Shown one piece after another: positions 3,229 to 59,058 of a stretch of DNA of 64,000 nt (positions are counted from its first letter, which is position 1; every line of letters begins with the position of its first letter). The translations under genes and the position numbers were made by a program. Source of the stretch: Escherichia phage slur16. The stretch lies in the sequence record NC_028248.1; one strand, 5' to 3'. The notes under the pieces were generated by a model. The model worked only from the letters and a program-made list of their open reading frames with translations, did not search any database and was not told the origin of the DNA.

Positions 3229-3906
3229 TTAGTGCGGTCCACTTGTCTCGCCATCAGGGCAAGAGTGGGTATGACCTTTATATTCTGCATAGAATGAATC
3301 CAAATCCACGCCAGCAGCAGTTATAATTCTACCAGATGGGTCTATTGTAGCACCATTCATTCTGATATTCCCATCCACAGCAGCTCGCAAATTGGCAGCC
3401 CCGTTAGTGAAAGAAAACTCCCCGCTGCTGTCGCACCGTAATGTCCCACCAGGTGTTTGAAGCTCAAAATCGCCAGAAGGTGTCAGTTTAAAATAAACCC
3501 TATCATTCCATAACTCTACGTTATCAGGATCGATCTGTAAGGCGTTTGAGTCTGAATGAACAGAGGTGATTGCCCACCCCGGAAACAGGCCGTGAGTTTG
3601 TTGATCGTCGTTATTGTTTTCATTTCTCTCTGAAAACTGCAATCCTACAACATCTCCAGCCTTAATAGGGAGTGTTAACCTTGCCTTTCCGCTGTTTGCA
3701 GACATCACCTGAATTGGAACGTCATAGATAAGAGGGTATCTCTCCACATCTCCGTCATCAAACGTAGTTTCAGCTATTGGCTGCACGGCTGCAGAAGGTA
3801 TACTGTAGTCTACACTGACAACTCTGGCCCTGATACTGGTGTGGTAGTCCCTCATTATTTTTTCTATAAAAGATCTTACAGCAGCATCTTTCCTATTTAT
3901 TGCCAT
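3229..3906 (-). CDS. baseplate structural protein
   Basis: 225 aa ORF, stop/start abutting neighbours; position only. Confidence 0.4.
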   Translation of the reverse strand: MAINRKDAAVRSFIEKIMRDYHTSIRARVVSVDYSIPSAAVQPIAETTFDDGDVERYPLIYDVPIQVMSANSGKARLTLPIKAGDVVGLQFSERNENNNDDQQTHGLFPGWAITSVHSDSNALQIDPDNVELWNDRVYFKLTPSGDFELQTPGGTLRCDSSGEFSFTNGAANLRAAVDGNIRMNGATIDPSGRIITAAGVDLDSFYAEYKGHTHSCPDGETSGPH

Positions 3907-4910
3907 TATACCTCCTCAGTTTTGTCAACAACTCCACCCACTGTTTCCCCAAGGCCAAGCTCTGTAGTGTAATCACCACCTTCTATGGTGCCCTTATGAT
4001 GCACCGTGATCACCTTATAGAAGCCTGTATATTGCTTGCTTTTAAGATAAATAGTGGACTCTGGGAGGATAGCTCCGTTAAGGCATGTGGTTACAGTAAG
4101 GCCAACATCCTCTCTCGGGTTTTTCTTTTTCTTTTTAGATGTCGAACCACCTTTGGCAGCAGCTTTAGCTTTTCGTTTTTTAGCAGGTTCTGGGTTTTTA
4201 GGGGTAGGAGATCCGTGCATCCCAGACTCTGCACTTATTTCAAACACAGAGTCTTTGAACCTTTTTCCAACCTTGGTCCAATACAAAGCCCCATCCTGAA
4301 CGCTAAATGTTGAGTTGGTCAGCCTTGCAAACCTGCGGAGGTTCTCTGCAGTGTTTCCAGAGAAAGCCATAGAGTATTGCAAAGTCTGGTTTCCAAAACC
4401 AACAACCCTACCTTTTGGCAAGTTCATATCCTTCAGTAGGTCATTAAGCACAGAGTTCAGAGGTGTACCTTTCTGATAAGATCTTGTGCTTTGGCACTTA
4501 ATGATGTTCTCAGTGCCATCCCCAAAGATGAACTTAGTTTTTCTGGTCGGACCTTCCCACCTGTCTTCAACAAACTCCACAGTTCCGGAGAATATCAACT
4601 GGTTCTCATTATCATAGCCAGCTTCAAACATAACTGCAAGGGCATCAGCCTGATGCATATCCAGATAGTTAACTGTATCGTCAGACAGGTTGTAAACTGT
4701 CACATAACCTTTGTTTGGCTCTTTGGTATTGTCCTTTTGTATGTCAAACTCTATATTGGCAGCACCAGTGTCTGAGCTAACTTCATAAACTCCGGAATCA
4801 CTCTCCCCTTTCTTTTCAACAGATTTTGGGATATTGGTTTTTGATTTACCGCCATGTTCTACAGGACGACCAAACAATAATCGCCATGTTCTACGTCTGT
4901 ACTCTGCCAT
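3906..4910 (-). CDS. baseplate protein with Lys-rich low-complexity segment
   Basis: 334 aa ORF overlapping neighbours by 1-4 nt; contains PAKKRKAKAAAKGGSTSKKKKKNPRED. Confidence 0.4.
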   Translation of the reverse strand: MAEYRRRTWRLLFGRPVEHGGKSKTNIPKSVEKKGESDSGVYEVSSDTGAANIEFDIQKDNTKEPNKGYVTVYNLSDDTVNYLDMHQADALAVMFEAGYDNENQLIFSGTVEFVEDRWEGPTRKTKFIFGDGTENIIKCQSTRSYQKGTPLNSVLNDLLKDMNLPKGRVVGFGNQTLQYSMAFSGNTAENLRRFARLTNSTFSVQDGALYWTKVGKRFKDSVFEISAESGMHGSPTPKNPEPAKKRKAKAAAKGGSTSKKKKKNPREDVGLTVTTCLNGAILPESTIYLKSKQYTGFYKVITVHHKGTIEGGDYTTELGLGETVGGVVDKTEEV

Positions 4911-5302: not shown

Positions 5303-6214
5303 TTATTTTCCGTTAACTTTGTTGTAGTTTCCCTGCTCAGATGGGACTATGGTAGAAGGTCTTCCATATTCCTGATAATACCAATCCGCAGCAGATTGAG
5401 TAACACCGTTTTCATCCGTCCACATCATAGATTTGTAGGGCTGCCACTCTTCTGCGGCATTTGTTGATGCAGTGTCTGCAAATGCCCCTGTGTCCCTCTT
5501 GTTACCTACGTTACTGCCATTCTTACAGTCGTTGACAGCACCTTTTTGCTGGGTCTTGCCTACTTTCTTAGGGTTGCTGTATACAGTTGCATTAACAACC
5601 TTGTTCAAGTAGAATGTGCGGAACTCTGTAAGTTCTACATCAAACACCATCGCAGCACCTTCACCAACAGACTTGTTGGCAGAAAGGCTGGTTATGATGT
5701 AGTTCTCAAGGAGTCTCTCCTCGGTAACCAAAGAAACCAACTGGCGCTTATTAATGATCTCAGTCAAAGCCTCCAGTGCAGCGCCTGGTCGCATAGACGC
5801 TGCAGGGTTTTTAGAGTCAGTATTCCTGTCAATGTAGTTTTGCTCATAGATTATATGTGGTGATGTATTTACCCTACCAGTAAAAGAAAATACACCATCT
5901 TTAATTACAGCGTGGTCTGACAGGGTAGATTTATCTTCCACCGCAAACCCAGTCTTATCAACAGAATGTTTGAAAGAGTAATTCTCAACCTGATCGAAGA
6001 TGATGGCAAGATCGTTAGTAAAGTTTTTACCCTTCATCTCCGTATTGCGACCACCATAGTTAAGACCGCTGACAAACATAGTGTACTTTACATCGCTTTC
6101 AGTTTGCTGTTCTGCCTTTTCAGCCTTTGGAGATTTAACCTCTTGAGGCTTGTACAGGTCTTTTTCATCAACTATATTGCTTGGCATAACCTCTCCAGGA
6201 CACTCCGATACCAT
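5303..6214 (-). CDS. tail / baseplate hub protein
   Basis: 303 aa ORF immediately downstream of the tape measure gene. Confidence 0.4.
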   Translation of the reverse strand: MVSECPGEVMPSNIVDEKDLYKPQEVKSPKAEKAEQQTESDVKYTMFVSGLNYGGRNTEMKGKNFTNDLAIIFDQVENYSFKHSVDKTGFAVEDKSTLSDHAVIKDGVFSFTGRVNTSPHIIYEQNYIDRNTDSKNPAASMRPGAALEALTEIINKRQLVSLVTEERLLENYIITSLSANKSVGEGAAMVFDVELTEFRTFYLNKVVNATVYSNPKKVGKTQQKGAVNDCKNGSNVGNKRDTGAFADTASTNAAEEWQPYKSMMWTDENGVTQSAADWYYQEYGRPSTIVPSEQGNYNKVNGK

Positions 6215-12506: not shown

Positions 12507-12977
12507 TTACTGTCCGATTTTAAAGGTTGCAGATTCAAGCAGCACATCGTAATGCCGCATAGCCTCGTTGAAGCCTTTCTCTTGTGCCCACTGCTCGCTA
12601 ACAGTAGGATTACTAAACTGCCCAGCCTCAATAACAAACTGGATAGCTTTGGCCCCTGTGTCCCCCATCTGCTTAAGAATAGCCTCTGCACTCGATCCCC
12701 TAGCCATAGCTCTCAACAATTTTTCTGTCAAGGTCTGTAGTTGAGTACTATGAAATGCAAAAGCTGTCTCCATGAAATTGCGAACAGGCAGCCCGTTCCA
12801 ACCGAAGTTGTGAATGGCTGCCAATGTTGCCATATTTAAGCCTGACGGGTGAGGTTCGTCATAAAAGCCGTAGGTTATTGTTTTACTTTCAAGTCTCACA
12901 AGCTCTTTGTAGAAGCGATCTAAACGCTTTAGGTTGAACCTTGTTTGACATTTAACCTTTAGCATTATATCCCTCAC
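12507..12977 (-). CDS. head-tail joining protein
   Basis: 156 aa ORF in the head-tail connector region. Confidence 0.35.
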   Translation of the reverse strand: MRDIMLKVKCQTRFNLKRLDRFYKELVRLESKTITYGFYDEPHPSGLNMATLAAIHNFGWNGLPVRNFMETAFAFHSTQLQTLTEKLLRAMARGSSAEAILKQMGDTGAKAIQFVIEAGQFSNPTVSEQWAQEKGFNEAMRHYDVLLESATFKIGQ

Positions 12978-20318: not shown

Positions 20319-20637
20319 CGTTTATGTTCGGGCAAGGTCGCTAGTCTTGCCCCGCCATTTTCAGGCAGCTGCATGTCTCCATGCAGACCAGACTATATCT
20401 TATAAGCGACAACAACCGCTTATCCTCCCGTTTCGAATCGCTTGATTCTACGTCTTTCGACTAGTCGTTGAACGTTCATCCTCTCGGATGCTTCGCTGCG
20501 GATTATCTAAATTAACACACTGTTACCATACCTTCGATCTCTCTTCGAAGCCTCTATCATGTTACCATGACAGGTTGGTGGTATTAATAGTAAAGATTTC
20601 CCCGCAATTAGGGAGGTTTTACGAGAGCTACAAATTA
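20319..20637 (-). mobile_element. group I self-splicing intron (ORF-less) in terL
   Basis: Minus-sense conserved elements in order: P AAUUGCGGGGAA (20609-20598), Q AAUCCGCAGC (20504-20495), R GUUCAACGACUAGUC (20473-20459), S AAGAUAUAGUCUGG (20401-20388); no ORF; splits Walker ATPase from nuclease domain. Confidence 0.8.
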
Positions 20638-21063
20638 ACCCTCATCGAAGCAAACCATGGTGTACTCAAGCCCTTGATGGTTAAGCTTATCTTGTACATA
20701 CTCCATGTGGCAGTATTTTACAACAGCTCCCTTTTTGCTTCTATCCCACTTGCCAGTGTTCGGATCAAACCGTGGAAAAATGAACTTATGATCCTTCTCT
20801 CTGAACTTTGGCTTAATGTTTTCAGGCAGATCACTATAAATAGCTACCGCTTTAGGCCATAGTCCACCCTCACCTTCCAACTGCGGGGTTGTTCTTCGGA
20901 ACATAACCACAGAGCTGTGGGGGTCATCAATAATTTTAAGTGGCATCAATTGCAAGAGGAACGACTTGCCAGACCCTGCGGCACCGCCGATTACCAAAAT
21001 ATCTGCATCGTTTTCGAGGATCATCTTCTGCTTTTCAGAACACGGTCCGTAAATCTTAGACAT
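20638..21063 (-). CDS. terL: terminase large subunit, exon 1 (ATPase domain)
   Basis: Walker A GGAAGSGKS and Walker B-like VCFDE; ORF-track stop at 20635 lies in intron sequence. Confidence 0.8.
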
Positions 21064-22412: not shown

Positions 22413-22511
22413 GGTGCTAGGTGATGGAATCGAACCACCTATGTATTCAACGACTACCTCGTCTATTTTCAGGATTAAAAATCCTCGCCCTTGCCAAAGG
22501 GCTTACCTAGC
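22413..22511 (-). tRNA. aberrant tRNA-like gene (possible pseudo-tRNA; Lys-UUU-like anticodon loop but oversized variable region)
   Basis: Perfect 7 bp acceptor GCUAGGU/ACCUAGC, D-arm GCCC-UUUGGCAA-GGGC and T-arm GGUGG-UUCGAUU-CCAUC, but ~47 nt between D- and T-arms; only CC encoded at 3' end. Confidence 0.3.
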
Positions 22512-24082: not shown

Positions 24083-24292
24083 TCAACAGATTCCGGCCTT
24101 ATCCCTCCTGTCTGCGTATTCTTTAATCGCAACCTCATCTGCATTGGTGACTAAATCTTCAAAGTAACTCTCAAGCTCCTCGTCAATGTCAGGAAACCAA
24201 CTCTTTTTCCTGTCAGTGTGAATCGCAGACTTGTTGAATTTATTACAGTTCTTTGCTACCGGATTGTTCATTAATCGCCCCTCAGCGTTCAT
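24083..24292 (-). CDS. hypothetical protein
   Basis: 69 aa ORF overlapping upstream gene end by 11 nt. Confidence 0.35.
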   Translation of the reverse strand: MNAEGRLMNNPVAKNCNKFNKSAIHTDRKKSWFPDIDEELESYFEDLVTNADEVAIKEYADRRDKAGIC

Positions 24293-24860
24293 AGTAAATC
24301 TTATTTAACATTACCTCATCCTTTGCAGAAAGAATACCGAGATATGCATCACCGAACCTACCTGCAACAACCTCTACATGATACATAACTTCGTTAATAT
24401 CGTCAAGAGTGATAACTGGATGACCGTACCTCTCTGAGTATTGTCTCAGAGTGCGATGTAGGGAATCATCATCGTAGGCAGACTTTTTAATATCACAAAC
24501 ACGACGAATAGCCTTGATGTCGAAAAACCCTGTGCGATACCAACCAAGAAAAAGGTTTCGTACAGTGTCAACACCTACATCAACACCGTCAAGAACCTTA
24601 TCTACAAGATAGCTGTCATCCTTTGGACCTGCTTCCTTAGTTCGAATGTAGTTGCCATCTTTTCCTGGTGACAGCTCCTTCTCATCACCAACCTGAATGC
24701 CATCATTTGGCGGTGTTAACCACTTATCCGGATGCTTACGATCACGAGCGTTAGAATGATTACGCTGGAAACCTGGCTTCCACTTGAAAGTTTTCTCCAT
24801 CTGTTCTTCATTCTGATAACGTTTTGCAATCTTTTCACGGTCATCTTTGCGTGGACTCAT
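24282..24860 (-). CDS. hypothetical protein
   Basis: 192 aa ORF with strong RBS (GAGGAGG 5 nt before ATG at 24860). Confidence 0.5.
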   Translation of the reverse strand: MSPRKDDREKIAKRYQNEEQMEKTFKWKPGFQRNHSNARDRKHPDKWLTPPNDGIQVGDEKELSPGKDGNYIRTKEAGPKDDSYLVDKVLDGVDVGVDTVRNLFLGWYRTGFFDIKAIRRVCDIKKSAYDDDSLHRTLRQYSERYGHPVITLDDINEVMYHVEVVAGRFGDAYLGILSAKDEVMLNKIYYER

Positions 24861-25365
24861 AGCTGCCTCCTCTTCAAGTTATAGAAAAACTCACTGTATC
24901 GCTTTGTAACGAGCTTTTCTATCAAACTGGTGCGATTGCCTTACCTGGTATAGTTTATATAGCTGTGGAGCGATTTAGGGGCCTTCTTGTCCGTTTCCAC
25001 ACATAAACTTCATCCAAGCTCGCGCGGGAGACTCTCAACCGACTCCTTACGGCGCTGGCAAGCTTTCGTCGGTGGTCCACATCAGTGCTCGGCCTTTGGC
25101 CTGCGCTATCGCTTCGCTCCCACACATGTTAACAGACCTTCATGTATGCACTTCTGTTATTGTGTGCACCAAGGAGGCCCGGCATCTCGCCCCTCGTAGG
25201 CGAGTGCCAATGAAGGGCCGACACTACCTATAGTAAGTAATAAATTTAAAACATGGTACTTAGGATCTAGTATATTCTACATAAGTTAAGTATATGTATT
25301 TAGTACCATAAGTACTAGATCTTTTATTTTTTTTATTATTTAGTTATTTTAGTTATATTCTTTAT

Positions 25366-25448
25366 GTGTCCGTATCACGGACAGTTAGTGTCCGTATTAC
25401 GGACAGATGTGTCCGCGTGACGGACAGTAGTGTCCGTATCACGGACAG
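25366..25448. repeat. four tandem palindromic sites (core TGTCCGT-NNN-ACGGACA), spacing 21-22 bp
   Basis: Copies at 25366-25384, 25388-25406, 25409-25427, 25430-25448; copies 1 and 4 identical; flanked by AT-rich DNA (25321-25365). Confidence 0.9.
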
Positions 25449-25522
25449 TTACTAACCTCTGTTCCAGAGTGAACATAAAACATACGAATCCTTATAGTAC
25501 AGATATTTAAGTTTTTACTGGT

Positions 25523-25873
25523 CTAACCAGTTGTTGACATTCGAATAACTTCTTCTGGTGGCAAAACTTTGGAAAATGTGCATCTTTTACCTCTCCCTTG
25601 TGTGGATATTTCAACCACTCCTGCACATTCTAAAGTTTTAACGCACGCTGCTGCTTTTGTTTTCTTTATCCCAATATCTGCTGCAATTTTCCTTGTGCTG
25701 GGCGTGAAGCGTGAATTTCCTCCAAGCTTATACCAGTTGTGCAGGTAGCAGTATACGATCTTGTCATATAAGTCAAGAACAACAACCTCACCAGTTGTGT
25801 CATTCAAAACTTTTGACATAGACAGTATTTCAAGGGGGACTTTAAGATATAGCAGCTTATCCCCATCTTTCAT
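25523..25873 (-). CDS. winged-helix / HTH DNA-binding protein
   Basis: 116 aa; segment FTPSTRKIAADIGIKKTKAAACVKTLECAGVVEI resembles a winged-helix recognition unit; ends ~75 bp from the palindrome array. Confidence 0.45.
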   Translation of the reverse strand: MKDGDKLLYLKVPLEILSMSKVLNDTTGEVVVLDLYDKIVYCYLHNWYKLGGNSRFTPSTRKIAADIGIKKTKAAACVKTLECAGVVEISTQGRGKRCTFSKVLPPEEVIRMSTTG

Positions 25874-45610: not shown

Positions 45611-45889
45611 ATGAGCTGTGAAAAATCTTTTTTCTTTATTATTTACGGTAAAGATAACTGCCCACATTGTGTAAGAGCAAAAGAATTTGCAGTCAGTAAA
45701 GGTCTGCCTTTTGTATATAAGACACTTGGCGAGGGTTACACAAAAGAAGAGCTTATTGAGAAGTGCAGTCCAATCGTACCCAGAACGTTGCCGCAGATCT
45801 TCTTAGAAAGCAATCTTGAAAGTGTCCATATAGGCGGTGCCGACGATTTCATCTCTTTTGTTAAGAATGGTTTTGGAGAGAAAAAGTGA
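45611..45889 (+). CDS. glutaredoxin / NrdH-like redoxin
   Basis: 92 aa with CPHC active site (YGKDNCPHCVRAKEF); between nrdB and nrdD. Confidence 0.7.
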   Translation: MSCEKSFFFIIYGKDNCPHCVRAKEFAVSKGLPFVYKTLGEGYTKEELIEKCSPIVPRTLPQIFLESNLESVHIGGADDFISFVKNGFGEKK

Positions 45890-46746
45890 AAGTTGTAAAA
45901 CGGGACGGTAGAGAAGAGGTCTATAACGGAATTAAGGTGATCAAGGCGGCAGAGTCCGCCTTACTTGAGTCTGGACATACTGAAGAAGAAGCTTACCGGA
46001 TCGCCTGTGCGGTTAATGAAGTTGTTGCTAACAATCTACCAACCGATCAGTGCACGATCTCTGTAAAAAATATCCATATCCTTGTTGAAGATGCTCTTAT
46101 GGATATGGGTTTAAAATGTGCAGCCAGAGAATACATCCAGTATAGGCAGACAAGAGATAATAACAGAGAGGCAGGTGGAAAACTGCTTGCAGATATTAGT
46201 GGCTTCTTGGATCGCACTTGTGATGAATTTACAAAAGAAAACGCAAATAAGCCTACCAATCATGTACACACTCATCGTGACCTGCTTGCAGGCATCCTTA
46301 GCAAACACCTTGCATCAACACAGATCCTGCCAGACCGTGTCTCAGAAGAGCACAATAAAGGCTTCATCCATGTGCATGATCTTGACTACTTGATCAGTCC
46401 GTTAACAAACTGTTGTTTGGTAAATTATCCAGATATGTTGGAAAACGGATTCAACATTGGCAACGCCCATGTCAGTAAGCCGAAGTCAATAGGGGTTGCA
46501 ACAACAATCCTTAGCCAAATCTCTAGTGCGGTAGCTAGTGCTCAATATGGTGGTCAGACTATGAGCCATATTGATCATTATCTGGCACAGTATGCTGAAG
46601 CAACCTATGAGAAGAACCTTAAATTTTGCCAGGAACATTGGTTGCCGGATGCTGAAACTGTTGCAATGCAAATGACAGATAAAGACGTATTTGACAGCAT
46701 GCAGACTTTGCTCTATCAAATCAATACGTTAACTTCTGTCAACGGT
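45886..46746 (+). CDS. nrdD: anaerobic ribonucleotide reductase, exon 1
   Basis: N-terminal ATP-cone-like start (MKVVKRDGREEVYNGIKV); frame ends in intron; 5' splice site approximate. Confidence 0.8.
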
Positions 46747-46749
46747 TAA

Positions 46750-47560
46750 CAAACTGGCCGTTGTAAAACTCTCCTAACCTCATAAGAGGGGTCGGTAAAT
46801 CCGGCTAACGGGGAACGCTAAGGCGAAAGCTATGCCAATCCCGTGACTAGTTCTTACAGGAGTTGGAACGGTTGTAACGACTAACGAAAGGCAGAGATGC
46901 TTGACAAACATTTCTGAACCAAGTAGTGTAGGGGTTAGTTGAAATACTAACTTCGAAATGGAGAGGCTCTATGAAAAAGATCATTCTTAATGGTGAAGAA
47001 TCAAACTATGTGATTGATGAAGTTGGAAACGTATACGGAAAACGTGGAATGCTGCACCCAATATTGTGGGGAGGTTATGGAAAAGGTAATAAGCATGTTA
47101 AACGCCGTTATATGTACTCTTTCAACCACAAAGGTAAAAAGATTCGAATCCAAACCTCAAGGGTTGTTGCCTTGTATTGTTTGCCAGATGTCCCAGAAGA
47201 CCCTGAAAACTGGGAAGTGAATCATAAAGATGGCAATACATTGAATGATCATCCGTCTAACCTAGAGTGGGTTTTGCCGGAAGATAATAAGAGACATGCT
47301 TTCCGAACAGGACTTTGTCCAGGTAAGTGCTATAGGAAAGTGCAGGCATACAAAGGGAAAATCTTGGTGGGTGAATATCCTTCACTCTACGCCTGTGCAA
47401 AAGCCTTAAATTTGAACGTAGGTAACGTTCACAGGGCTATCGAAGGAAATGCCGAAGGTAAGCATCTCACAATAAAGGGTTATTATCTTATTGAAGTAGA
47501 GTAAGAGATAGTCTGGCCCTGTGGAAACACAGGGAGGAGACAGCAGACTCCATTCATCAC
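46750..47560 (+). mobile_element. group I intron in nrdD carrying HNH homing endonuclease
   Basis: Q-like AATCCCGTGAC (46848-46858), R-like GTTGTAACGACTAACG (46871-46886), S-like AAGAGATAGTCTGG (47503-47516) flanking the HNH ORF; splits one nrdD reading frame. Confidence 0.8.
46971..47504 (+). CDS. HNH homing endonuclease (intron-encoded)
   Basis: 177 aa; HNH core EVNHKDGNTLNDHPSNLEWV; lies inside nrdD intron. Confidence 0.8.
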   Translation: MKKIILNGEESNYVIDEVGNVYGKRGMLHPILWGGYGKGNKHVKRRYMYSFNHKGKKIRIQTSRVVALYCLPDVPEDPENWEVNHKDGNTLNDHPSNLEWVLPEDNKRHAFRTGLCPGKCYRKVQAYKGKILVGEYPSLYACAKALNLNVGNVHRAIEGNAEGKHLTIKGYYLIEVE

Positions 47561-47561
47561 A

Positions 47562-48806
47562 TTGAGTTTAGGACTGGATACCTCGGTCTTTGGTAGAATG
47601 ATTACCAAAAACTACCTGAAAGTCCACAAAATGGGTCTTGGTGAAGAACGTATCACACCTGTGTTCCCTAAAGTGCTGTTCTTCCTGGAAGAGGGTGTCA
47701 ACATGAACCCTGGGGATCCTAACTATGATTTGAAACGATTAGCTCTGGAATGCTGTGCAGAACGTATCTATCCTGACTTCGTATCTGTACCACTAAATAG
47801 AAAAGTGACAGGCTCGACAGATGGCAAAGTAACTAGCATGGGTTGCAGGAGTTTTCTTAGCAAATACAATGACTTGGAAACAGGCGAGGAGAAATACCTT
47901 GGCAGATTTAACTTAGGCGTTGTTAGCCTTAACCTGCCAATGATTGCGGCAAAAGCCAAGACGGAAGGTGTTGATTTCTTTGCAGTTCTTGACGAATACT
48001 TGGATCTTGCATACGAGGCTCACCTTGTAAGGGTTAATCGTCTAAAAGGAACAAAGGCAGGGCAGAACCCCATCATGTGGTGTGAAGGCGCTCTTGCTCG
48101 CCTGGATCCTGAAGAGAGTATTGATAAACTCTTCTATGACGGGTACGCTTCCATCAGTATTGGGTATATCGGTGTGTATGAAACCTGTCAGATTTTGGGC
48201 AGAGAGGGTGACAAGGCTTTAGCTCTTGGAATCCTTCAGCACATGAGAGATGCTTGTGAGCGATACAAGAAGGAAAGTAGACTAGCATTTAGCTTGTACG
48301 GCACTCCTTCTGAGAGTCTATGCTATAAAGCTGCAACCTGTCTGGATCGTGAATATCCGGAAGTGTTGAAGCACGAGCATGAATATCTCACCAACAGTTT
48401 CCATCAGCCAGTATGGATAAATAGCTCTCCTTTTGATAAGTGGGAGTATGAGGAAGGTTTTGCTATAATCTCCTCTGGTGGCAACATCGGATACGTAGAA
48501 ACACCTAACCTGAAAAACAACCTGGATGCTTTAGAGGCTCTTGTTGACTTCGGGTATAAACACATTATGTATTTTGGTATTAACCAACCTGTGGATAAAT
48601 GTCTCAAGTGTGGTTTCTCTGGTGAGTTCAGTGCAACAGCTAAAGGCTTTGTATGCCCAGAGTGTGGAAACCATGAAGAGGGAACGATCAGTGTAATTCG
48701 ACGTGTGTCTGGATACCTTTCCAGTCCTAACTCCCGTCCTTACAATAAAGGTAAGCAAGCGGAAGTTATCGAGCGAGTTAAGCACTACGGAAGTTGTGGT
48801 TGCTGA
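47562..48806 (+). CDS. nrdD: anaerobic ribonucleotide reductase, exon 2
   Basis: GRFNLGVVSLNLP; C-terminal zinc ribbon CLKCGF...CPECG and glycyl-radical motif RRVSGYL; exon probably begins 10-40 nt upstream of the ORF-track TTG. Confidence 0.8.
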   Translation: MSLGLDTSVFGRMITKNYLKVHKMGLGEERITPVFPKVLFFLEEGVNMNPGDPNYDLKRLALECCAERIYPDFVSVPLNRKVTGSTDGKVTSMGCRSFLSKYNDLETGEEKYLGRFNLGVVSLNLPMIAAKAKTEGVDFFAVLDEYLDLAYEAHLVRVNRLKGTKAGQNPIMWCEGALARLDPEESIDKLFYDGYASISIGYIGVYETCQILGREGDKALALGILQHMRDACERYKKESRLAFSLYGTPSESLCYKAATCLDREYPEVLKHEHEYLTNSFHQPVWINSSPFDKWEYEEGFAIISSGGNIGYVETPNLKNNLDALEALVDFGYKHIMYFGINQPVDKCLKCGFSGEFSATAKGFVCPECGNHEEGTISVIRRVSGYLSSPNSRPYNKGKQAEVIERVKHYGSCGC

Positions 48807-58737: not shown

Positions 58738-59058
58738 ATGCAAATTGAAATCACTGGCAACAATGTAGAAATCACAGAAGGTATGGTATCTTTTATTTCC
58801 CGCAAAATGTCCAAGCTGGAGCGTTTACATCCCTCTGTTAACTATGCACGTGTGAGTGTAAAAGTTGAAAATGATCACCAGGAAGTTATGGCGTTCATTT
58901 TTGACAATTCTGGAAAAGAAGTTATTGCCAAGGCTAAAGGCAGTGATGCTTACGAGGCAACTGACCGTATGGTAGATGTTGCAGCACGTCAGCTGGCTAA
59001 ATGCGGTGGAAAGAAAGGTAAGGGGAAAGGCAAAGTAAAGATTGACTTTGGAGAATGA
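58738..59058 (+). CDS. hpf: ribosome hibernation promoting factor homolog (RaiA/HPF family) with Lys/Gly-rich C-terminal tail
   Basis: MQIEITGNNVEITEGM...KLERL...VSVKVE...GSDAYEATDRMVDVAARQLAK aligns with E. coli HPF MQLNITGNNVEITEAL...KLEQY...VVLKVE...GQDMYAAIDGLIDKLARQLTK. Confidence 0.75.
   Translation: MQIEITGNNVEITEGMVSFISRKMSKLERLHPSVNYARVSVKVENDHQEVMAFIFDNSGKEVIAKAKGSDAYEATDRMVDVAARQLAKCGGKKGKGKGKVKIDFGE

Follow-up and report, generated by a model that had tools for sequence, protein, structure and literature searches.

The origin of replication of the rV5-like phages (genus Vequintavirus) has never been located; in the rV5 genome paper it was sought by skew analysis and could not be defined. 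Widely isolated, these phages are components of cocktails for phage therapy and biocontrol, and with a concrete candidate origin their replication would become accessible to study and engineering. Does a gene-free island of 660 bp in one of them, Escherichia phage slur16, a virulent myovirus infecting E. coli, provide such a candidate? A first-pass annotation of the window (the whole stretch of 64,000 nucleotides of record NC_028248.1 analysed here, from an assembled genome of 136,898 bp) had offered three readings of the island: an origin, a partition site or an operator array. Protein homology, the repeats, the AT-rich tract and a module swap favour the first of these; the second is left without support, and the third is less likely than the first. 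The island is most likely the replication origin of the phage, a reading that stops short of proof.

Results

A gene-free island upstream of a long operon

The island (24861-25522) is real, and every feature described in it was found at or near the position given for it. Position 25,300 of the window corresponds to about 43,500 in LN881735.1. It is devoid of annotation in nearly all of 117 relatives (Vequintavirus records). Its left boundary is the downstream gene, a minus-strand gene for a 192-aa protein (24282-24860; PHROG 12226) with no assigned function and no match in Pfam, and on its right lies the minus-strand gene of a 116-aa winged-helix protein (25523-25873). Among GenBank phages, both proteins are confined to the genus. 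Neighbouring genes encode an AAA_33 kinase-like ATPase, a metallophosphatase (phosphoesterase) and an RNA ligase. On a larger scale, the island is located between early-type genes and a long operon of the same strand, made of the 192-aa gene, tRNAs, lysis, terminase and structural genes. The tRNA cluster is found 2 kb downstream of the island and the large terminase gene about 3.5 kb downstream, both on this strand, with some ten genes and the tRNA cluster between island and terminase. Among the genes of rV5-like phages are those of a helicase and a polymerase, namely a T7-like primase-helicase (gene at LN881735.1 114092-116170) and a family A polymerase.

The earlier statement that no open reading frame is present over these 660 bp has to be qualified: mechanical frames of 31-70 aa exist, and are annotated in some GenBank records, but none is supported as coding. 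No frame has a third-position bias, and a frame running across the repeat array cannot be conserved, because the length of the array shifts in steps of 21-43 bp among relatives.

At the left end, the 5' untranslated region of the 192-aa gene (24861-24974, minus strand) includes a 12-bp A/U-rich hairpin (24881-24922, inverted repeat I9), directly upstream of the ribosome-binding site. Its arms are 92% complementary, and the sole non-Watson-Crick position is a G.U pair on the minus strand. At the right end, a poorly conserved spacer (25449-25522) separates the repeat array from the stop codon of the winged-helix gene. It has a mean pairwise identity of 0.894 and 32% variable columns, versus identities of 0.96-0.99 in the other parts, and provides a local near-neutral baseline.

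Four phased repeats and the least stable DNA of the genome

Next to this spacer are four direct repeats of 21-22 bp (25366-25451), each containing a 7-3-7 palindrome, TGTCCGT-N3-ACGGACA, with cores at 25367-25383, 25389-25405, 25410-25426 and 25431-25447. The four palindromes reported at 21-22 bp spacing were thus recovered, and the 22-nt direct-repeat family to which they belong is spaced by 22, 21 and 21 bp, so that the copies are phased. The sequence TGTCCGTNNNACGGACA starts at 25367, 25389, 25410 (one mismatch) and 25431; only 0.15 matches are expected, and four or more were obtained in none of 100 shuffles. A search of the rest of the genome, which the first-pass annotation had proposed as a check, revealed no further site with up to two mismatches in 136,898 bp. 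Among relatives, the array counts two to six copies, in which the arms TGTCCG/CGGACA are invariant and the centre is variable, and its identity is 0.99, versus 0.89 in the adjoining spacer. Inverted 7-3-7 sub-repeats inside direct repeats of 21-22 bp correspond to the layout of semi-palindromic direct-repeat iterons. Judging from their sequence, the four repeats are candidate iterons, that is, putative initiator-binding sites.

The repeats are followed by an AT-rich tract of 81% A+T (25226-25365), whose minus strand is A-rich on the side of the repeats and which is a candidate DNA unwinding element. The tract had been recognised at first reading, and its low GC content (19%) was found again, but its left edge is at 25226, not 25246. 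Nowhere in the 136.9-kb genome is the duplex less stable, whether windows of 60, 100 or 140 bp are used. For the 100-bp window, its value was -100.6 kcal/mol, the next-best being -111.7 and the genome mean -133.5 (sd 5.7), which places it at a z of about +5.8. Its identity among relatives is 0.97, above that of the neutral spacer. It contains two GATC sites and, on the plus strand, GATCTTTTATTTT (25318-25330), which agrees at every position with the 13-mer consensus of E. coli oriC, GATCTnTTnTTTT. This match is the sole perfect one in the window and in the genome, and is kept in four relatives (L001, L041, L042 and L046); a lone match of this kind in a T-rich tract can be due to chance, the probability of which is not negligible.

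Matches to the DnaA box (TTWTNCACA) numbered ten in the window and none in 24861-25522, and initiation at the island would therefore not be driven by DnaA. DnaA boxes are present in many but not all iteron-type origins. The cumulative GC skew reaches its minimum at about 27,000, some 1.5 kb from the island, at a switch in gene orientation, which explains it. The remark that nothing else in the window looks like this island can be extended to the entire genome for the palindromes, the AT-rich tract and the core of the GC-rich block described below.

The adjoining protein is related to the PLE replication initiator

The winged-helix gene was confirmed on the minus strand at 25523-25873, with 75 bp between its end and the last palindrome, as the first reading had it. 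The 116-aa protein matched 4RO3, the N-terminal domain of PLE RepA, with E=1.8e-6 and 25-29% identity over some 80-100 residues. In structural comparisons, the same entry ranked first or second and gave the longest alignment, while at the level of the fold the protein resembles many regulators as well as initiators. It matched HTH_36 in Pfam and initiator PHROGs, and its sole significant sequence relative of known function is a replication initiator. By these comparisons, the 116-aa protein and the DNA-binding domain of PLE RepA are homologous, and the former is a candidate origin-binding initiator.

It is a reduced one, however. The N-terminal winged-helix DNA-binding domain of the RepA_N/DnaD-N type is present, but the C-terminal domain that is host- or replisome-specific is absent: the protein stops at residue 116, residues 111-116 are disordered in the model, and no domain able to recruit a helicase or a primase is found. 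At E up to 0.1, it did not match Pfam RepA_N (PF06970), only HTH_36 and DUF6945 being detected, nor did it match any O-like PHROG at E ≤ 0.01. A k-mer search for homologues of the winged-helix and 192-aa proteins returned close relatives only, and an exhaustive HMMER search for wider homologues gave 12 weak matches of the HTH_36 type.

The N-terminal domain of PLE RepA (4RO3) binds semi-palindromic iterons at the PLE origin, as determined by EMSA and genetics; this origin is the non-coding region 3 of PLE, a phage satellite of Vibrio cholerae, and RepA owes its place in the RepA_N family to its structure rather than to its sequence (Barth et al., Nucleic Acids Res 2020, PMC7145576). Besides the homologous DNA-binding domain, both the rV5-type island and the PLE origin have direct repeats that contain inverted sub-repeats, and in both these lie next to the gene in non-coding DNA. 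The differences are that the rV5-type protein, a putative binder, consists of the N-terminal domain alone (116 aa), escapes detection by Pfam RepA_N, and comes from a large virulent phage, whereas PLE RepA comes from a satellite. Moreover, the rV5-type repeats converge on a 3-nt centre, whereas most of the described RepA_N-type iterons converge on a poly-A tract (PMC7145576). If the proposed role is true, the range of initiators of the RepA_N/PLE-RepA type, so far satellites and Gram-positive plasmids, comes to include a large virulent coliphage.

Protein, repeats and AT-rich tract are exchanged together

In a divergent relative, L011, the GC-rich block on the left is retained at 85% identity and the right flank is replaced. 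The counterpart of the winged-helix protein shows 27% identity and is still HTH_36-like, the repeats read TCTGATRCA..TGYATCAGA, unlike TGTCCGT-N3-ACGGACA, and the tract is T-rich and is the least stable DNA of that locus. Protein, repeats and AT-rich tract have been exchanged as a unit for a non-homologous, equivalent set.

The right part of the island combines the attributes of an iteron-type origin: phased repeat copies, an easily melted tract beside them and a candidate initiator gene adjoining. An iteron-type origin is therefore supported, given the unique phased repeats, the initiator homology, the least stable DNA of the genome and the module swap.

A separable, GC-rich structured element

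The left part of the island is a conserved, GC-rich structured element on the minus strand (24975-25225). The block had been drawn as 24975-25245; it is present, with 56.6% GC versus 43.2% for the window, but ends on the right at about 25225. Of all 251-bp stretches of the window, the richest in GC lies in it (0.574; mean 0.431, sd 0.033), and the identity of the block among rV5-like phages is 0.96. A protein-coding function was rejected, as the block has stops in all six frames, substitutions are evenly distributed over codon positions, and the ratio of synonymous to nonsynonymous changes is about 1:3. The view that block and array are parts of one device was not upheld: the block is separable, being kept where the initiator module was swapped, and its core has covarying stems of its own and is common to satellite-like plasmids.

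This core (25018-25086, minus strand) is 69 nt long and consists of two stacked stems, GGAC/GUCU and ACCGAC/GUCGGU, around an invariant 24-nt loop, GAAAGCUUGCCAGCGCCGKAAGGA. In the stems, 97.5% of cells are paired, and both sides have changed in four of the ten pairs. The covariation score is 0.33, versus 0.16 in shuffles, none of 500 of which reached it. The number of independent events behind this covariation is small: most of it comes from the split between phage and satellites, and the rest from L011 and L046. Both the satellites and L011 differ from the phage by compensatory changes in the stems. The core contains 15 G.U cells that would be A.C on the plus strand, and the pairing pattern favours the minus strand. 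The folding energy of the block as a single sequence did not differ significantly from that of shuffles on either strand, as RNA or as DNA (z -0.9 to -1.5), and the RNAalifold structure of the phage-only alignment (94% identity), which has almost no covariation, was not relied on. As a whole, the block is built of modular hairpins punctuated by a repeated UGUGUGGG motif (UGUGUGGG/CCCACACA), present three times in the phage and up to five times in satellites.

By covariance-model search, the core occurs once per genome. Across the phage collection, it was present in 117 Vequintavirus records and in no others. Searching for the block in IMG/VR gave one contig, and a metagenome scan gave 29 loci, of which five are real (L013, L016, L017, L027 and L011, the last being the same contig as L013); the remaining ones are chance matches in GC-rich soil contigs. 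An origin of the block in the E. coli chromosome was rejected, since matches were to satellite-like plasmids only and to no chromosome. The whole window was scanned with Rfam 15, and no match fell in the island at gathering thresholds; over the island at E up to 10 the best was rli43, with 21.9 bits for a cut-off of 100, and nothing was credible. ARAGORN detected neither tRNA nor tmRNA in the island. The block may be a replisome-entry or priming signal, or else a structured RNA; single-stranded DNA and RNA fit equally.

Plasmids of 13-14 kb carry the core

The core of the block is shared by E. coli plasmids of 13-14 kb that encode capsid, tape-measure and baseplate proteins, and of which a literature search found no published description. 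One of them is NZ_CP020521.1, from E. coli strain 190. They look like satellites of rV5-like phages: they have capsid and tail genes, and no annotated terminase or portal. They also have their own initiator, a 303-aa O-like protein with weak matches to O-like PHROGs, their own iterons (CGGAAATATTTACCG), three tandem 13-mer-like repeats (GATCTATT) beside these iterons, and TATATCA-N3-TGATATA palindromes at their least stable DNA. Their HTH proteins have no similarity to the winged-helix protein of the phage. The block is located upstream of, and co-oriented with, a long operon ending in the tape-measure gene, and a strong sigma-70 promoter is found downstream of it, between block and operon.

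Only two non-coding sequences are common to satellites and phage, the core and a 25-mer that lies at LN881735.1 3287-3311, in the other non-coding region of the phage. In three independent lineages (rV5-like phages, L011 and satellites), the block adjoins AT-rich/repeat arrays. If the plasmids are indeed satellites, they form with these phages a new helper-satellite pair in the best-studied bacterium, and the core would be their handle for using the helper. It is tentatively suggested that the core, with its invariant loop, is a new cis signal, acting as single-stranded DNA or RNA, for the replication or late-expression machinery of rV5-like phages, which the 13-14-kb plasmid satellites would have copied to parasitise them.

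Discussion

A proposed composite origin

We consider the balance to tilt slightly towards a composite island, made of an iteron-type origin with its initiator gene (25226-25873) and of a separate structured element (24975-25225). The 116-aa protein would bind as dimers to the four phased, semi-palindromic repeats of 21-22 bp downstream of its own gene, and the resulting nucleoprotein complex would melt the adjoining 140-bp AT-rich tract, at which the T7-like primase-helicase and the family A polymerase could then assemble. A fork leaving the tract leftward would render the structured element single-stranded before any other DNA, and the element might act there as a replisome-entry or priming signal, by analogy with the G-site of R1 and ssiA/ssiB of IncQ plasmids. 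Sharing the 69-nt core would let satellites that have their own initiator and repeats use the replication machinery of the helper.

Several known origins offer points of comparison. In R1, where oriR is followed by a downstream G-site, and in IncQ plasmids (RSF1010), where oriV is accompanied by ssiA/ssiB, repeats and an AT-rich tract are flanked by a strand-specific hairpin priming signal; IncQ oriV has iterons, GC-rich and AT-rich segments. The order of iterons, AT-rich tract and GC-rich structured DNA is alike in the phage, as far as descriptions rather than sequence comparison tell. However, the phage element is about 250 nt long instead of some 40-100 nt, it is a modular, multi-hairpin one with UGUGUGGG/CCCACACA, and its putative role in priming is suggested by the analogy.

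The lambda ori has four dyad-symmetric initiator sites of about 19-22 bp, placed at roughly two helical turns and directly followed by a strand-asymmetric AT-rich tract, and in lambda relatives initiator and sites co-vary as a specificity module. The phage island resembles it in its four dyad-symmetric sites, its AT-rich tract and its initiator/site module. It differs in that the lambda ori lies inside the O gene, whereas the rV5-type array is outside the winged-helix gene, and in that the 116-aa protein has no O-like PHROG match, only the 303-aa protein of the satellites being weakly O-like. Furthermore, lambda needs P and the host DnaB, whereas in the rV5-like phages helicase and polymerase are phage-encoded. 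With E. coli oriC, the likeness is limited to one perfect 13-mer (GATCTnTTnTTTT) in the AT-rich tract and to the GATC sites, the satellites having three repeats of the GATCTATT type; the phage has a single 13-mer and no DnaA box in the island.

Alternative readings

Control of late transcription is an unlikely alternative. The winged-helix protein would be a transcription factor, the palindromes its activator or operator sites, the AT-rich tract a promoter with an UP-like element, and the GC-rich block the structured 5' leader RNA, for instance an antitermination or regulatory one, of the long minus-strand operon; satellites would have copied the leader to follow the late programme of their helper. 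The position of the island between early-type genes and the structural/lysis operon agrees with this, as does the placement of the repeats, which follow the gene of the protein itself and precede the next transcription unit. In the block, the pairing fits the transcribed (minus) strand, the satellite block is likewise upstream of a co-oriented long operon, the fold of the protein is as close to many regulators as to initiators, and the region is probably transcribed by read-through, because no terminator follows the winged-helix gene. Yet no sigma-70-like promoter was predicted on the minus strand at 25220-25460, nor any intrinsic terminator that a leader could control, prediction over the island having given neither sigma-70 promoters nor terminators on the gene strand; in the rV5 study, no early-type promoter and no late motif of the TGGTAAAATA type was located in the island. 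A promoter would not need a tract as long as 140 bp, with 81% A+T and the lowest duplex stability in the genome, and the only significant relative of known function is an initiator of replication. In the satellites, the strong sigma-70 promoter is downstream of the block and ahead of the operon.

It is quite unlikely that the GC-rich block is a free-standing non-coding RNA gene to which the array is unrelated, its product being a stable RNA acting, for example, as a sponge or decoy that counters a host defence or an RNA-binding protein, with satellites carrying a related RNA for the same benefit. Sponge RNAs of the CsrB and CrcZ types are composed of modular hairpins punctuated by a repeated motif, which is the layout of the block with its repeated UGUGUGGG. 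The gene strand is the one favoured by the compensatory changes and G.U pairs, and it also carries the tRNA cluster, 2 kb downstream; PhiTE, of the same subfamily, encodes a functional anti-defence RNA. In contrast, neither promoter nor terminator was predicted around the block, Rfam gave no match even at E up to 10, and the folding energy was no better than that of shuffles. An unrelated array would also leave unexplained why the block is found beside AT-rich/repeat arrays in three independent lineages.

Very improbable is a function in packaging, in which the block core, the palindromes or both would be a pac site for the helper terminase, shared by satellites for their own packaging. Double-stranded pac sites are not known to have covarying stems with an invariant loop, and the protein adjoining the array is initiator-like, unlike a small terminase subunit. 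The large terminase gene is indeed on the same strand, about 3.5 kb downstream, but some ten genes and the tRNA cluster separate it from the island. The satellites, with capsid and tail genes and no annotated terminase or portal, would need a packaging signal of the helper type, and they have just two non-coding sequences in common with the phage, the core and the 25-mer, the latter being an equally good pac candidate.

Some type Ib/II centromeres have tandem palindromic sites beside the gene of a small DNA-binding protein, but a centromere-like partition site bound by the winged-helix protein is extremely improbable and was rejected, as this virulent myovirus has a lytic lifestyle with no plasmid-prophage state and no partner NTPase gene (ParA-, ParB-, ParM- or TubZ-like genes were sought nearby), and as AT-rich tract and initiator homology would be left unexplained.

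For the preferred reading, an iteron-type origin at the island, a second non-coding region of the phage has to be considered. It is 2.5 kb long (LN881735.1 1770-4318, outside the window), has iteron-like GTRAAYAGT repeats, and could be the origin, or another origin.

Antitoxin repeats of the ToxI type were rejected for the island: the unit length differs, there is no similarity, and no Rfam match was found. In the pseudo-ToxI locus of PhiTE (Vequintavirinae), which is made of non-coding tandem repeats, the units are 36-nt pseudoknot RNAs (Blower et al. 2012, PMC3475682), whereas the rV5-type units are palindromes of 21-22 bp. The two have in common that they are non-coding tandem-repeat loci of related phages, in which the copy number changes readily.

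Repeat array and AT-rich tract

The complete genome (136,898 bp) was assembled from the window and three further pieces. A 3-kb query around the gene-free island (24861-25522) was 100% identical to Escherichia phage slur12 (LN881735.1, in which window position w corresponds to 68875-w) and shared 91-99.9% identity with more than 110 other Vequintavirus (rV5-like) genomes. The island is without annotation in nearly all Vequintavirus records, and the remaining ones show there just small ORFs called mechanically, features labelled 'repeat_region' or a single predicted promoter. In the rV5 genome paper, the origin was sought by skew analysis, which gave only skew changes coinciding with changes in transcription direction, and the promoter and terminator tables of that paper have no entry inside the island. 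Throughout the region, eighteen 'UNVERIFIED Campylobacter phage' GenBank records (MG0656xx, e.g. MG065690.1, locus L043) are 91-98% identical to the E. coli Vequintavirus studied here, which makes their host label doubtful; in one of them, MG065672.1, assembly ends fall within the repeat array.

The first-pass annotation had described the island as devoid of ORFs. Small ORFs are in fact present, and none behaves as coding. The four palindromes that it reported were recovered: TGTCCGTNNNACGGACA occurs at 25367, 25389, 25410 (with one mismatch) and 25431, where 0.15 sites are expected, and the regular 21-22 bp spacing was borne out by 22-nt direct repeats spaced 22, 21 and 21. A search for the palindrome in the complete 136,898 bp revealed no further site at two mismatches or fewer. 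Among 12 relatives, the array (25366-25451) has 2, 3, 4 or 6 copies, and its TGTCCG/CGGACA arms are invariant, variation being confined to the central bases. Array length differs among relatives by steps that are not multiples of three, and identity is 0.99 in the array, versus 0.89 in the adjoining 74-bp spacer. These repeats behave like iterons.

The AT-rich tract noticed beside them (25226-25365) has a GC content of 19%. Nearest-neighbour energies show no less stable duplex anywhere in the genome, whether windows of 60, 100 or 140 bp are used: at 100 bp its value is -100.6 kcal/mol, the next-weakest window has -111.7, and the genome averages -133.5 (sd 5.7). On the minus strand, 33 of the 46 nt adjoining the repeats are A and 9 are T. 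Identity in the tract is 0.97, higher than in the near-neutral spacer. The genome's only perfect match to the oriC 13-mer consensus GATCTnTTnTTTT lies at 25318-25330 and is kept in relatives, but because the tract is T-rich, this match is merely suggestive. No DnaA box was found in the island. Overall, the tract behaves like an unwinding element.

The adjacent winged-helix protein

The gene at 25523-25873 (minus strand) ends 75 bp from the array, as had been noted. Its 116-aa product matches Pfam HTH_36 and DUF6945 as well as PHROG 12838, 'replication initiation protein'; three other initiator PHROGs were matched more weakly, via their DNA-binding regions. Among solved structures, the only significant match was 4RO3 (E=1.8e-6, residues 12-90 vs 10-92), and a Foldseek search with the AlphaFold model (mean pLDDT 70) ranked 4RO3 at the top and the N-terminal domains of RepA initiators from staphylococcal plasmids next. 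The 4RO3 structure shows the N-terminal domain of the RepA protein from the Vibrio cholerae satellite PLE. The iterons to which this RepA binds are semi-palindromic and lie in a non-coding region, and PLE replication depends on that binding, as established by EMSA and genetics (PMC7145576). In contrast to PLE RepA, the phage protein is without any C-terminal domain.

A divergent 137-kb phage contig (loci L011 and L013) keeps the 192-aa gene that bounds the island on the left (24282-24860, minus strand; 88% nucleotide identity over the first 100 nt) and the GC-rich block (85% identity), whereas right of about 25225 its similarity to slur12 falls to random. Its counterpart protein, of 143 aa, is just 27% identical to that of slur12 and is likewise of the HTH_36/initiator-PHROG type. 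Directly downstream of its gene lies a different palindrome array, TCTGATRCA..TGYATCAGA, followed by a T-rich tract that has the lowest duplex stability within that locus. Protein, sites and putative unwinding tract were thus replaced jointly and form one specificity module, from which the GC block is separable.

GC-rich block

The GC-rich block also proved real: 24975-25225 has a GC content of 56.6% and includes the window's most GC-rich 251 bp. It is single copy and not coding, no Rfam family matches it, and neither promoter nor terminator was predicted for it. Outside Vequintavirus, its sole matches were E. coli plasmids of 13.2-13.9 kb, one 39.6-kb record bearing three copies, and a pair of contigs from metagenomes (13.9 and 15.5 kb). 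Alignment revealed invariant stretches and, between them, stems with paired changes: where the phages have ACCGAC/GTCGGT, the plasmids have GCTGCC/GGCAGC, and GGCA..CTCGCC/GGCGAG..TGCC is replaced by GTCA..CTCTCC/GGAGAG..TGAC. The divergent contig has further paired changes (GGGAG/CTCCC to GGAAG/CTTCC, and CAGA/TCTG to CAGC/GCTG).

For the 69-nt core common to phages and plasmids (25018-25086, minus strand), a model of two stacked stems around a 24-nt loop was specified. In this model 97.5% of cells pair, four of the ten pairs have changes on both sides, and the covariation score, 0.33, exceeds that of shuffles (0.16; 0/500 reach 0.33), a signal that rests on few events, mainly one phage/satellite split. 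Pairing collapses to 30-51% in slid controls. On the minus strand, fifteen cells of the core form G.U, for which the plus strand would have A.C; the better candidate is therefore the minus strand, on which all neighbouring genes lie. Two further caveats apply to the structure: single-sequence folding was no better than shuffles, and several loops, when the plus strand is read, take the form of c-GNA-g triloops. The motif CCCACACA (UGUGUGGG on the minus strand) punctuates the hairpin modules of the block, with three copies in the phage and up to five in the plasmids, whose version has extra modules.

Satellite-like plasmids

The plasmid elements (NZ_CP020521.1, L009; NZ_CP035869.1, L010; CP148565.1; NZ_CP178698.1; NZ_CP043822.1, L008; and the metagenome loci L016 and L017) are circular and 13-14 kb long. 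Their gene products include a major capsid protein, a tape-measure protein (about 38% aa identity with its phage counterpart) and baseplate proteins (48-54% aa identity to the products of 5501-6058 and 12537-12878), together with HTH proteins and a 303-aa protein weakly matching lambda-O-like initiator PHROGs; no terminase or portal is annotated in them. Their non-coding, repeat-rich DNA, about 2.9 kb, includes the GC block, three TATATCA-N3-TGATATA palindromes located at the element's least stable DNA, three tandem 13-mer-like repeats GATCTATT and at least six iterons CGGAAATATTTACCG. They therefore have an origin-like apparatus of their own plus the phage's core. A comparison with the complete phage genome found just one more stretch of non-coding DNA in common, a 25-mer in the phage's second non-coding region. 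These elements look like plasmid-borne satellites of rV5-like helper phages; a literature search found no paper describing them.

A proposed origin

An iteron-type origin is the reading that agrees best with the evidence. In it, the RepA_N-like protein would bind the four phased repeats, the adjoining AT tract would melt, and the phage's own replisome would then assemble there. Genes for a replicative helicase and a family A polymerase are located at LN881735.1 114092-119006, and the rV5 authors note a primase-helicase (rV5 genome paper). With a leftward fork, the GC element would be the first DNA exposed, its minus strand serving as lagging-strand template. The R1 G-site and IncQ ssiA/ssiB suggest, as analogues, that it may be a signal for replisome entry or priming; the satellites would have copied this signal to use helper enzymes.

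Nearly as plausible is that the GC element is a structured leader or free-standing RNA.

In architecture, the island matches iteron origins described before: lambda ori, plasmid oriV and PLE ori. It departs from known kinds in three respects: its putative initiator consists of an N-terminal domain only and belongs to a large virulent coliphage, a covarying element of 250 nt is fused to the putative unwinding tract, and the core of that element also occurs in satellite-like elements that are plasmid-borne and encode capsid protein.

Other features of the phage

A second gene-free region, of 2.5 kb (LN881735.1 1770-4318), lies outside the window, which ends at record position 4875. It contains at least eight GTRAAYAGT iteron-like repeats, other repeat families and the 25-mer TGATATTTGAGAATTGTTAKAAGAA (3287-3311), matched at 24/25 in all satellites. 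This region may be a second origin or a pac region. A 12-bp A/U-rich hairpin (24881-24922, minus strand) that relatives also have lies just upstream of the site where ribosomes would bind to translate the 192-aa gene; it may be an mRNA 5' stabiliser or translational control element.

A group I intron (Rfam RF00028, 84.3 bits; 20369-20647, minus strand) interrupts the large terminase gene, annotated in records as two 'Terminase-like' pieces. The anaerobic ribonucleotide reductase gene nrdD (about 45886-48806; LN881735.1 20069-22989) is likewise annotated in two pieces, and the 177-aa ORF between them suggests another intervening element, which could be an intron or the insertion of a homing endonuclease; the Rfam search found no intron at this locus. 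Within the tRNA cluster, a 97-99-nt tRNA-like gene (22413-22511, minus strand) is given a 4-base anticodon (atcc) by ARAGORN, just 35.5 bits by Rfam, and tRNA-Lys in the BASEL record; the gene may contain an intron or encode a tRNA that is unusual in another way. A putative ribosome hibernation promoting factor (hpf) is annotated in the record at about 58738-59058 (LN881735.1 9817-10137).
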